Shown here piece after piece: positions 19,701 through 21,740 of a stretch of 64,000 nucleotides of DNA (position 1 is the first letter of the stretch; every line of letters starts with the position of its first letter). Position numbers and translations under genes: made by a program. The DNA is from a phage. Under the pieces are notes generated by a model. It made no database searches and had not been told where the DNA came from. It was given only the letters and a program-made list of their open reading frames with translations. Where the stretch lies: the NCBI GenBank assembly GCA_014161675.1, contig GCA_014161675.1_4760.1; one strand, given 5' to 3'.

Positions 19701-21442
19701 GCGTGATTGAAGGGATTAACGCAATGGCGACGGATGAACACCCGCTACATTTAGCGCATCCGTCTACACTAGAAACTAAAATTGATTCAAACGGCATTGA
19801 ATGGATTTTATCAAAGCATGATGATAAATGGTATCCTAAAAAGTTTTCTGACTATCTGAAATTAAACAGACCGCAGAAAATAAGGATGCAAAGCACTGAT
19901 CCAACAAATTATAAGTTCTTTAAAGATAGTGACAATATTCGCACGCGGTATATGCGATTAAAGAACTTGCGAAGGGCGAATATTAAAACTCAGTATACCC
20001 CTGAAATGATCGCAGAGTGGAAACGATGCCGTAAAGATATTGTGTATTTTGCCGAAACCTATTGCGCAATTACACACATCGACTACGGTACAATCAAAGT
20101 ACAATTGCGTGATTATCAGAAAGATATGCTTAAGATCATGCATGAAAACCGCATGAGCGCACATAAACTCAGCCGTCAGCTAGGGAAAACTACCGCTGTA
20201 GCAATATTCCTTGCTCACTACGTTTGTTTTAATAAAGACAAAGCGGTAGGTATACTGGCACACAAAGGGTCAATGGCGGTTGAAGTTCTAGAACGTACTA
20301 AACAAGCAATTGAACTATTACCAGACTTCTTACAGCCAGGTATTGTTGAATGGAACAAGAAATCAATTGTTCTTGAAAACGGTTCAAGTATTGGTGCTTA
20401 TGCGTCGTCTCCTGATGCTGTGCGTGGTAACTCTTTTTCGTTTATCTACATAGACGAATGCGTTAGTGGCTTGACCAAAGTTACATTACGTGATAAGCTA
20501 ACAGGTGAGATTAAAGAATACACCATGTTAGAGGTTAAGATGATGGCTATTCAGCAAAAGTTAAGTAAAATTAAAGAGTTATTGCTACCACACGCTAAAA
20601 ATCCAAACTTGACTCGCGGATTAATTTCTGGCATAACGAAAGAAATGATGGATGAGTTTAAAGAGTTTTTCGACACTCATTTTCACAAAACAGATACAAT
20701 GAGAGAATTTGTAGCATGTGTAGTAAATGATATTCTGGAACGCCCAACGTGTAAGCATTGCGGAGGCCGAGTAAAATATAGTAAAGTTCGACCGAGATAT
20801 AATAATGTATGTTCTCAGTCATGTAACGCTAAATTACCAAAGCGTAGAGGACTCTTTAACAATAATTGGGTATTCTTCCGGCGATACTTATGCACCGGAT
20901 GTAATGAGTTTACAGCAAAATGTAAAGGTCATTTATGCAGAAAATGCGGGCATGAACAACAAGGCGAGGCGATGAAACGCATATACGTCGAAAACGGTGA
21001 TGAAATGCGCAAAAAGTGTAACGGCAAGAAAACACCAGAACAAAGGGCTAAACAGTCCGAACAAGTTAAACAGCGTATTCTGAATGGTGAATTTACTCCT
21101 AAGACGACCAACCGTCTTAATCACACCCGCATTAAGTATGATGGTCATAGCTTTCGTAGCTCATGGGAATTAGCTTTCTATAAAGATATGAAAGCTAAAG
21201 GAGTTAATATTGAATATGAAACGCTTCGTGTTGCATACAAATTTAAAGGAAATAATCACGTTTATATTACGGACTTCGTAGATCACGATAATAAGATCAT
21301 TTATGAAGTTAAGCCTAAGCGACTTGTTGAAGATCCAAAAACAATGGCGAAAGAACAAGCCGCTATAGAATGGTGTAAGGAAAACGGATACACTTTCGAA
21401 TATATTCACGAGGATTATATTAATGAACTTTTGGAATCTTGA
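19697..21442 (+). CDS. 17: gp17 terminase large subunit N-extein (ATPase, 254 aa) fused in frame to putative intein N-fragment and a Cys-rich nuclease-like domain
   Basis: Walker A 'SRQLGKT' and Walker B 'FIYIDE' as in T4 gp17; the next residue is Cys (codon 20459-20461) starting '[12 protein letters not shown]...' (intein block A-like); then about 300 aa with Cys clusters and a 'DFVD...EVK' motif. Confidence 0.75.
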
Positions 21443-21740
21443 AGGATTCGAAGTTCTCACCGAAAACGGTTTTAAAGATTTTGATGGCATAAAAGAAACA
21501 TTTGGTATGATCTGGAAACTAACATTTAGTGACGGGTCATACCTTGAATGCTCAGAAAGCCATAAATTAAAATCAAGTGACGGCTTTTTTATTGAAGCCG
21601 ATGATATAGAGGCTGGATTCGTTACGTCTTCCGGCCTTACTGTCATTAGTAAAGATTATGTTGGTGAAGACTTTTTATACGATCTAACTAATGTTGCCGA
21701 TGGCAACCATTACACTACAAACAATGTAGAATCTCACAAT
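20459..21740 (+). mobile_element. Putative atypically split intein plus homing-endonuclease-like insertion in gp17
   Basis: Insert starts with Cys after Walker B and ends '...NVESHN' immediately before 'CAFIQNW...' where gp17 homology resumes; halves lie in different frames, the second with its own RBS and ATG. Confidence 0.65.

Follow-up and report, generated by a model that had tools for sequence, protein, structure and literature searches.

A putative mobile split intein with an in-frame endonuclease in the large terminase gene of Krischvirus phages

The DNA analysed here (the window) is a 64,000-nucleotide (nt) stretch of phage sequence from GenBank assembly GCA_014161675.1, contig GCA_014161675.1_4760.1. 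It belongs to a Krischvirus, an RB49-like T4-type coliphage: a megablast of positions 19697-22802 returned 64 phage records (RefSeq/GenBank duplicates included), nearly all of them Escherichia/Shigella Krischvirus. Its gene 17, which encodes the large terminase subunit gp17 (TerL), is spread over two overlapping open reading frames (ORFs). We consider it very probable that gp17 was interrupted between Glu254 and Cys255 by a mobile, atypically split intein of the TerL family that came with a homing endonuclease, and that the protein is restored by trans-splicing. The anatomy of the element, the homology of each of its parts, the conservation of its layout, purifying selection, and a presence/absence polymorphism accompanied by a signature in the flanking DNA are all observed. 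An earlier note on the window, made without database searches, had described the interruption and read it as a split intein; its observation is confirmed and that reading is supported. Split TerL inteins are themselves a known family, from which this one differs by an endonuclease fused in frame to the N-terminal intein half.

Anatomy of the interrupted gene

ORF1 (19697-21442, plus strand, 581 amino acids (aa), TGA at 21440-21442) encodes gp17 residues 1-254, ending ...SFSFIYIDE, then a 26-aa N-terminal intein half (IntN), and then about 300 further residues up to the stop codon. ORF2 (21423-22802, plus strand, 459 aa) lies in the +1 frame relative to ORF1 and overlaps it by 20 nt; its residues 1-106, the C-terminal intein half (IntC), terminate in ...VESHN, and CAFIQNW follows directly. 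The earlier note had gp17 homology stopping at FIYIDE with a Cys next, and resuming at the Cys after HN, and this is borne out by joining ORF1 residues 1-254 to ORF2 residues 107-459: the resulting 607 aa are identical to RB49 gp17 at 607 of 607 positions. The extein sum given there (254 + 353 = 607 aa) holds, with RB49 gp17 (607 aa, exact) a better comparator than the T4 protein (610 aa) to which it had been set, as do its other statements about the sequence, namely the ORF1 stop at 21442 and an ORF2 ATG at 21423 in another frame with its own GAGGA. Since RB49 gp17 is restored exactly, the insert must be exactly 20459-21740; it is 1282 nt long, not a multiple of three, and its removal leaves an intact host protein, as is expected of an intein.

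The boundaries are equally evident in domain searches. Pfam Terminase_6N is matched at profile positions 5-106 by ORF1 residues 159-256 and at positions 107-213 by ORF2 from residue 109, followed by Terminase_6C, and the host domain is therefore cleanly cut in two. These matches on the exteins, and a site at DE/CAF in most relatives (here and below a slash marks a junction), identify the host protein as a phage large terminase. The N-extein ends with Walker B and the catalytic Glu (...FIYIDE), and the first residue of the C-extein is the nucleophile Cys+1 (CAFIQNW...). In T4 gp17, Walker B spans residues 251-255 and Glu256 is the catalytic residue, which puts the insertion between the catalytic Glu and the next Cys; the alignment of the family profile to T4 gp17 chains agrees. 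The parts of the locus, all on the plus strand, are as follows.

19697-20458, plus strand: gp17 (TerL) N-extein, residues 1-254 (Pfam Terminase_6N, E=6e-26, profile positions 5-106 only; identical to RB49 1-254)
20452-20455, plus strand: two synonymous flank substitutions relative to phage Delraymugoa, A at 20452 (ATT>ATA) and C at 20455 (GAT>GAC)
20459-20536, plus strand: IntN, intein block A, 26 aa, Cys1 at 20459-20461 (profile of distant relatives, alignment, structure model)
20531-20545, plus strand: possible internal initiation site that would give a free endonuclease, GAGG at 20531-20534 with ATG at 20540 and 20543, Met28 and Met29 of the intein tail (sequence reading)
20537-21442, plus strand: predicted homing endonuclease, 301 aa, in frame with IntN and with no stop between (Pfam, PDB, phrog, structure model with Foldseek)
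21410-21414, plus strand: Shine-Dalgarno sequence GAGGA for ORF2, within endonuclease codons ...HEDY... (conserved spacing in relatives)
21423-21442, plus strand: overlap of the endonuclease-ORF 3' end with the IntC-ORF start, 20 nt, frame change +1
21423-21740, plus strand: IntC, 106 aa, Hint blocks B to G (PDB 6DSL_B match, family profile, exhaustive search)
21741-22802, plus strand: gp17 C-extein, residues 255-607 and stop (Terminase_6N from position 107, then Terminase_6C; identical to RB49 255-607)

A PDB search with the 26-residue IntN peptide gave no match, the peptide being too short for such a search, and for that reason we used a home-made hidden Markov model (HMM) built from 26 IntN segments of distant relatives in IMG/VR. 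Searched against a six-frame translation of all 64 kb, it has a sole significant match, which starts at nt 20459 (E=1.9e-6), precisely the segment after Walker B in which the earlier note had seen intein block A. The window's IntN can be aligned with the IntN of both contiguous and split relatives, and in an AlphaFold2 (AF2) model it forms a beta-hairpin and then a helix.

IntC carries a block B His at 21561-21563 (SESH), a block F reading FLYDLTNV, and a terminal His-Asn at 21735-21740. Its residues 5-105 match PDB 6DSL_B, 'consensus engineered intein CatC', at E=6e-12, so that the assignment of these 106 residues to the rest of a Hint domain, which the earlier note had made by eye, now has a direct match to a solved intein. 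CatC is the C-fragment of the consensus atypical TerL split intein, and ORF2 and CatC begin at equivalent points (query residue 5 aligned with CatC residue 13). A 20-sequence IntC family profile matches CatC (6DSL_B) at E=3e-26 and the gp41-1 intein at 5e-9, and further matches the Spl DnaX, VidaL and DnaB inteins. The class-1 catalytic residues are complete: Cys1 (CVSG...), His in block B (SESH), Asp in block F (FLYDL), His-Asn at the end of IntC, and Cys+1; H47, N106 and C107 are invariant in the alignment of the 20 family sequences. Judged by these matches, the intein homology of both halves lies far beyond chance.

The sensitivity of the search mattered greatly. A word-indexed protein search with IntC gave no matches, and an exhaustive HMMER search gave 511 cluster representatives at E<=1e-3, many of which begin with IntC at their own N-terminus and are therefore split; other family members are contiguous mini-inteins at DE/CAF (e.g., P0014, P0018). 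Similarly, a search for related loci found no relative with the window's IntC alone and 161 with an alignment of diverse IntC sequences. The natural split between blocks A and B, with the halves on separate ORFs, is conserved in at least ten genomes. A short free N-fragment (25-37 aa) is lacking, as the chain runs on for 301 aa, and only the Hint-derived part of the N-fragment, at 26 aa, is short. The atypical TerL split-intein arrangement that the earlier note had invoked thus stands for the A/B split and the homology of both halves, but not for the N-fragment, which is no very short peptide but a 327-aa IntN-endonuclease polypeptide, since IntN and the endonuclease form one continuous frame.

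The endonuclease and the layouts of its relatives

The domain of about 300 aa that follows IntN and ends at 21442 had been called unrelated in the earlier note; its presence and extent stand, but it is predicted to be a PD-(D/E)xK homing endonuclease with zinc ribbons. A helical N-module is followed by a first Cys4 zinc ribbon (Cys at 20750-20824), a second Cys4 zinc ribbon (Cys at 20891-20947), and a PD-(D/E)xK core (21131-21439) with its catalytic Glu, Asp, Glu and Lys at 21167, 21272, 21305 and 21311, respectively. ORF1 residues 504-572 exceed the cut-offs of two Pfam families, Tn7_TnsA-like_N (PF08722, 35.1 bits, cut-off 26.5) and Phage_endo_I (PF05367, 31.2 bits, cut-off 29.1), and among PDB entries T7 endonuclease I is matched at E=4e-4, its catalytic Glu, Asp and Glu-x-Lys aligning with SSWE, ITDF and EVK. 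The match to phrog_15427 ('endonuclease') has E=5e-48. An AF2 model of the endonuclease reaches a mean predicted local distance difference test score (pLDDT) of 69, with 82-92 in the nuclease core, and Foldseek relates it to TnsA (1e-3), to the catalytic domain of I-Bth0305I (7.6e-3), and also to Vsr. In a five-sequence alignment E237, D272 and E283 are invariant, and K285 is replaced by Arg in one member, P0004, and kept in the other four. The nuclease is accordingly of the PD-(D/E)xK class (T7 endonuclease I / TnsA N-terminal type); it is not of the Vsr-like type defined by an EDxHD motif, because the His of its DFVDHD is not conserved in the family alignment, and has a conserved D...ExK set instead. 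We infer that this domain is the homing endonuclease of the element, homing function included.

The endonuclease family occurs in 51 phage records, in two forms. A long form fused to IntN is found in Krischvirus and in the cultured Shewanella phage Thanatos-2, and a short form of about 199 aa, encoded as a separate ORF between the TerL halves, is found in PspYZU05, Yersinia TG1, phiR1-RT, Salmonella SG1, Escherichia HY03, CE1, PD112 and others. The free-standing homologue P0003 starts near the Met28/29 position of the window's intein tail in the endonuclease alignment. An internal start there was rejected as the main route to a free endonuclease: it is possible in Krischvirus, where the candidate is confined, and both codons are missing in Thanatos-2 and in the metagenomic T4-like contig L009.

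The window's copy has a peculiarity of its own. Positions 20730-20910 (intein-tail residues ~91-150, covering the first zinc ribbon and a linker) form a mosaic module that is identical to L009 at 41 of 60 residues and to other Krischvirus copies at 27 of 60, and the remainder of the element is 92-100% identical to those other copies. This looks like a swapped DNA-recognition module. This allele was found in none of the GenBank phages in our collection, where the best match has 80.9% aa identity.

The same pair of overlapping ORFs, with an ORF1 of 583 aa, is present in six GenBank Krischvirus genomes (SAP, TB34, kaaroe, G2494, phiS and JK32), and GoldenSnicker is a seventh GenBank Krischvirus with the insert and the same fused-form tail. 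An uninterrupted gp17 gene of 1824 nt is found in about 57 of the 64 matching records. More distantly, L009 has the same layout with an intein-endonuclease tail 64% identical to that of the window, the metagenomic contig L010 has it at 39% identity, and Thanatos-2 (L093, MT457553, 467-3567) has the fused IntN-endonuclease and IntC layout at 43.5%. The Thanatos paper gives Thanatos-2 two large-terminase coding sequences and says that a 1.2-kb insertion causes a frameshift.

We classified 80 related IMG/VR loci by layout, which gave 11 contiguous mini-inteins, 38 split inteins with a gap the size of a free-standing endonuclease, 4 split without an endonuclease, 10 split with IntN read straight into an endonuclease that overlaps shortly onto IntC, and 17 that were truncated or unclear. 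In the four fused tails that were translated (L049, L067, L076, L080) the nuclease is GIY-YIG, and the one-sided fusion is thus recurrent, with unrelated nucleases. The loci without an endonuclease gene (L045, L073-L075) are atypically split TerL inteins with 25-110 nt from the IntN stop to the IntC start; in the gene-breaking model they represent the 'endonuclease lost' stage.

Expression, mobility and alternative explanations

ORF2 appears to be started by its own ribosome-binding site. GAGGA at 21410-21414 lies 8 nt before the ORF2 ATG, and in the window, SAP, L009, both L010 junctions, PspYZU05, TG1 and Thanatos-2 the IntC start codon is preceded, at a distance of 6-9 nt, by GAGGA or GAGG. 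This Shine-Dalgarno sequence and start are buried in ...EDY / ...EDF... codons of the endonuclease and are kept in fused and free-standing relatives alike. Because relatives whose endonuclease has its own ORF retain them as well, ORF2 is probably translated independently; because they are buried in the last endonuclease codons, it is probably also translationally coupled on the same late mRNA. The 20-nt overlap recurs in L009 and at the second L010 junction, and overlaps of 6-69 bp have been described in fractured genes (PMC2677866). A promoter or terminator inside the insert for ORF2 or the endonuclease was considered and rejected: 20459-21740 has no T4-type late promoter (TATAAATA) and no terminator-like site, and its sigma-70-like sites are at chance level. 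Just upstream of gene 18, on the gp17 stop codon, there is a T4-type late-promoter motif TATAAATA at 22798-22805; it is the only such motif within 18000-24000, and ORF1 and ORF2 are therefore probably co-transcribed from upstream of the terminase genes. On the best reading, a single late mRNA gives two products by coupled translation, which are then trans-spliced.

Selection was gauged by the ratio of nonsynonymous to synonymous divergence (dN/dS) with phiS as the reference, since against L009 and PspYZU05 synonymous divergence (dS) is saturated. The ratio is 0.09 for IntN, 0.03 for IntC, 0.21 for the endonuclease and 0.03-0.05 for the exteins, consistent with purifying selection on all parts of the element and on the exteins. 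With the same reference, dS is higher in the element (0.27-0.64) than in the exteins (0.12), indicating different histories for the element and its host gene.

The presence of the insert is polymorphic among genomes that are more than 99% identical. Compared with those of Delraymugoa, which has no intein, the window's exteins differ at 2 of 1824 nt, both of them synonymous and located at -6 and -3 from the insertion. The intein-less site in RB49 and Delraymugoa reads ...TACATTGATGAA / TGCGCATTT..., and the window's joined junction has ATAGAC. A comparison of seven intein-bearing alleles, that of the window and those of six relatives, shows GAC at -3 in every one, against GAT in RB49 and Delraymugoa, and a junction query carrying GAC matched no intein-less record at 100%. 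Recent homing in which only a very short tract was co-converted would fit this flank signature, as would target-site immunity, but neither is thereby proven.

Four other explanations were weighed against a trans-spliced mobile intein. In the first, the gp17 fragments are never ligated and the terminase works as a non-covalent two-chain enzyme, the intein halves serving as a dimerisation module or being irrelevant. Genes split by an endonuclease without any intein do exist and function, such as Aeh1 nrdA (mobE) and an SbcD-like locus (PMC2677866). Here, however, all class-1 splicing residues are conserved across relatives of only 35-65% identity, IntC is under strong constraint (dN/dS of 0.03), the break falls between the Walker B catalytic Glu and the next residue of the ATPase core, and the homologues AceL-TerL, GOS-TerL and Cat have been shown to trans-splice (PMC11766414). 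We regard permanently unligated halves as improbable.

A programmed +1 ribosomal frameshift in 21423-21442 would produce a single precursor containing a contiguous, endonuclease-bearing intein that splices in cis. The +1 position of ORF2 fits such a shift, CTT-T (GAA CTT TTG) in the overlap resembles the prfB slip codon, and ORF1 ends in TCT TGA. Against this, CTT-T is not found in the L009 and L010 overlaps, overlaps are not constant in length (within L010 itself they measure 8 and 20 nt), the Shine-Dalgarno sequence and start codon are conserved in every relative, and PspYZU05, TG1 and phiR1-RT encode IntN and the endonuclease on different ORFs, which no single frameshift could turn into a contiguous protein. 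Frameshifting at CTT-T was rejected on the lack of conservation of the motif and the conservation of the Shine-Dalgarno sequence and ATG, and we hold it to be very unlikely.

It seems scarcely credible that the intein is contiguous and only a sequencing or assembly error shifts its frame, or that the gene is a decaying pseudogene. An insert length that is not a multiple of three, the GenBank label 'similar to large terminase protein' on G2494 and the 1.2 kbp frameshifting insertion of the Thanatos-2 paper might all be cited in favour. The intein-bearing Krischvirus genomes, however, come from different laboratories in Denmark, Ireland, Germany, China, the UK and elsewhere, and these independently sequenced genomes share an identical frame arrangement with relatives down to 39% identity. 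All parts are under purifying selection, and the carriers are plaque-forming phage isolates listed with a propagation host. TerL is essential. We take the frame break to be real and not a sequencing error. Lastly, endonuclease-bearing introns do interrupt phage terminase and other essential genes, such as terL of ICP1 (PMC10055350), but a self-splicing group I/II intron with an endonuclease ORF, removed at the RNA level, is next to inconceivable here, as no Rfam family (and so no intron) matches 20300-21900 at E<=1, the ground on which it was rejected, and both ends of the insert encode in-frame Hint sequence homologous to solved inteins, with a His-Asn end followed by Cys.

With a trans-spliced split intein preferred, the following mechanism can be proposed. 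The product of ORF1 is one 67.8-kDa chain of gp17(1-254), IntN (26 aa) and the 301-aa endonuclease, and that of ORF2 is a 52.1-kDa chain of IntC (106 aa) and gp17(255-607). The IntN-endonuclease tail (38.4 kDa) is basic, with an isoelectric point (pI) of 9.3, and IntC (11.9 kDa) is acidic, with a pI of 4.2; the two would associate and rebuild the Hint fold. Class-1 trans-splicing through Cys1, the block B His, the terminal His-Asn and Cys+1 would then yield a 69.6-kDa gp17 with the native ...IYIDE-CAFIQNW... junction and set free a two-chain by-product of IntN-endonuclease and IntC. DNA packaging by gp17 would in that case depend on trans-splicing of the two halves. In a mixed infection the endonuclease would cut intein-less gp17 near the insertion site, and recombinational repair would copy the element in, i.e., homing.

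Several points weigh against this account. Splicing, the activity and target of the endonuclease, and homing are all deduced from sequence. The substitution at -3 could be an ordinary polymorphism and not a homing signature. Pfam found no Hint family in the window's own IntC, and a single-sequence AF2 model of IntC is uninformative (pLDDT 37). The earlier note had listed a failure of these 106 residues to match Hint-domain profiles among the findings that would count against it, and the outcome is divided, with the window's IntC missed and 17 of the 20 IntC family members matching Pfam Intein_splicing. A 35-kDa passenger on IntN is unlike the characterised members of the family, in which the free IntN has 25-37 aa, and AceL-TerL splices poorly at 37 C (PMC11766414).

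A further idea, which we offer tentatively and are inclined to doubt, is that selection has favoured the in-frame fusion of IntN and endonuclease, which would then be a bifunctional intein that naturally consists of two chains and not the outcome of a neutrally lost stop codon. The endonuclease would be made only within the terminase N-fragment, be released by trans-splicing, and act with the reassembled Hint domain, tying homing activity and terminase maturation to one late-gene translation event. The fusion would have arisen repeatedly at the A/B split site with unrelated nucleases (PD-(D/E)xK, GIY-YIG).

Comparison with known systems and further observations

The nearest characterised inteins are AceL-TerL (reportedly from Thiel et al. 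2014), GOS-TerL (reportedly from Bachmann and Mootz 2015) and the consensus 'Cat' intein (PDB 6DSL, reportedly from Stevens et al. 2018). The window's intein shares with them a phage large terminase as host, a split after block A, Cys1 and Cys+1 as nucleophiles, an IntC of 104-106 aa spanning blocks B to G, and the IntN motif CV.G.T.VT.R.K.TGEI. Those inteins come from metagenomic reads or are an engineered consensus, whereas this one resides in a culturable E. coli phage, and where AceL-TerL and GOS-TerL have a free IntN tail of 25-37 aa (PMC11766414), the window's IntN runs without a stop into the 301-aa endonuclease.

In the fractured genes of Dassa et al. (2009), IntN ends in a stop codon, followed by a spacer of 27-51 nt, often with a hairpin or late promoter, and a free-standing GIY-YIG or Vsr-like endonuclease; among them is a gp17-like terminase locus from Lake Gatun with a 122-aa C-part and only motif N1 in its N-part (PMC2677866). 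The Lake Gatun terminase has the same unusual split point as the window, and in fractured genes as in the window the 3' end of the endonuclease overlaps the IntC-ORF and supplies its start (by 6-69 bp in theirs and 20 nt here). Unlike them, the window has no stop, spacer, hairpin or promoter between IntN and the endonuclease, which is thus not free-standing, and its nuclease has a classical D...ExK site like that of T7 endonuclease I/TnsA in place of a GIY-YIG or Vsr-like one. In terms of the Dassa model, the layout amounts to half of step IIIa, with the 5' flank lost and the 3' break kept.

T4-like phages with a free-standing endonuclease (PspYZU05, TG1, phiR1-RT, SG1, HY03, CE1, PD112) have the same site, YIDE/C...HN/CAF, an IntC 61-67% identical and an endonuclease core ~49% identical to those of the window, and an IntC start within ...EDF... 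codons. They differ from the window in an IntN that ends after 41-43 aa, in a ~199-aa endonuclease ORF in another frame, and in an endonuclease without the helical N-module and first zinc ribbon. Canonical bifunctional inteins (PI-SceI; the LAGLIDADG intein in gp17 of phage AV108) likewise hold the endonuclease within the intein polypeptide and tie its expression to the host gene. In these, however, a LAGLIDADG or HNH nuclease sits between blocks B and F, joined at both ends in one chain that splices in cis, whereas in the window a PD-(D/E)xK nuclease sits between blocks A and B, joined on its N-terminal side only, and splicing would necessarily be in trans. T7 endonuclease I, Tn7 TnsA and I-Bth0305I share the restriction-endonuclease-like fold; the window's protein differs in its extra N-terminal zinc-ribbon modules and in having no EDxHD motif, and it lies in a homing-endonuclease context, not in one of a resolvase or transposase.

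Our literature search found no paper recognising these Krischvirus/Thanatos-2-type loci as split inteins, and GenBank annotates them as 'hypothetical protein', or as 'similar to large terminase protein' on a misc_feature. The analysis thereby corrects a recurring annotation error by which such loci are labelled hypothetical proteins, frameshifts or pseudogenes. Atypical split inteins are valued in protein engineering for their peptide-sized N-fragment, and in the literature searched the natural ones are known from metagenomic reads, or the family from an engineered consensus, only. The window's intein interrupts an essential protein, the packaging ATPase, in E. coli phages that form plaques and have intein-less sister strains more than 99% identical, and trans-splicing, its cost to the phage, targeting and homing are therefore testable by T4-type genetics at 37 C. 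A classical PD-(D/E)xK nuclease is new among intein-associated endonucleases, and in the pathway that has been proposed to link free-standing endonucleases, fractured genes and bifunctional inteins, the one-sided fusion of endonuclease to IntN is a concrete intermediate.

Other inteins turned up in related terminases. In L010 (ENA ERZ27248689 k141_67156, 220-4244) the TerL gene is divided into three consecutive ORFs by two atypically split inteins, at the P-loop (GK/T) and at Walker B (DE/C), each with its IntN fused in frame to an endonuclease, the first of which seems to resemble T5orf172; the pieces overlap their successors by 8 nt and 20 nt. Five metagenomic TerL proteins (P0005, P0006, P0007, P0009, P0013) have 2-3 copies of the intein family per chain, at GK/T, a few residues before Walker B, at DE/CAF, and at ...EF/GSS; these multi-copy proteins suggest that the family hops between ATPase motifs. 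Escherichia phage AV108 (L004, OR352938, 495-3311) is a Krischvirus with a different, contiguous 331-aa intein at the P-loop of gp17; its junctions are SRQLGK/ALDVNT...IPTHN/TTAVAIF, its first residue is Ala and not Cys/Ser, and it has LAGLIDADG-like motifs. Counting the intein of the window, at least two unrelated inteins, each at its own ATPase motif, therefore occur in Krischvirus gp17.

In Campylobacter phages CP8, CPX, CP81, NCTC12673, PC14 and Los1 (L026-L036, ~4001-4372) an ORF begins with an IntC-like sequence, 35-36% identical, and some 40 Campylobacter myovirus records give this ORF as a putative DNA packaging protein; a probe with the N-extein found no upstream partner at these loci. 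Finally, just upstream of gp15, SAP and TB34 (L001/L006, 1-159) and G2494 (L007, 1-104) have a gene annotated as a homing endonuclease or 'group I intron endonuclease', and kaaroe, JK32 and phiS have a neck protein gene at that position. This makes it the second site in the neighbourhood of the packaging genes where the presence of an endonuclease varies.

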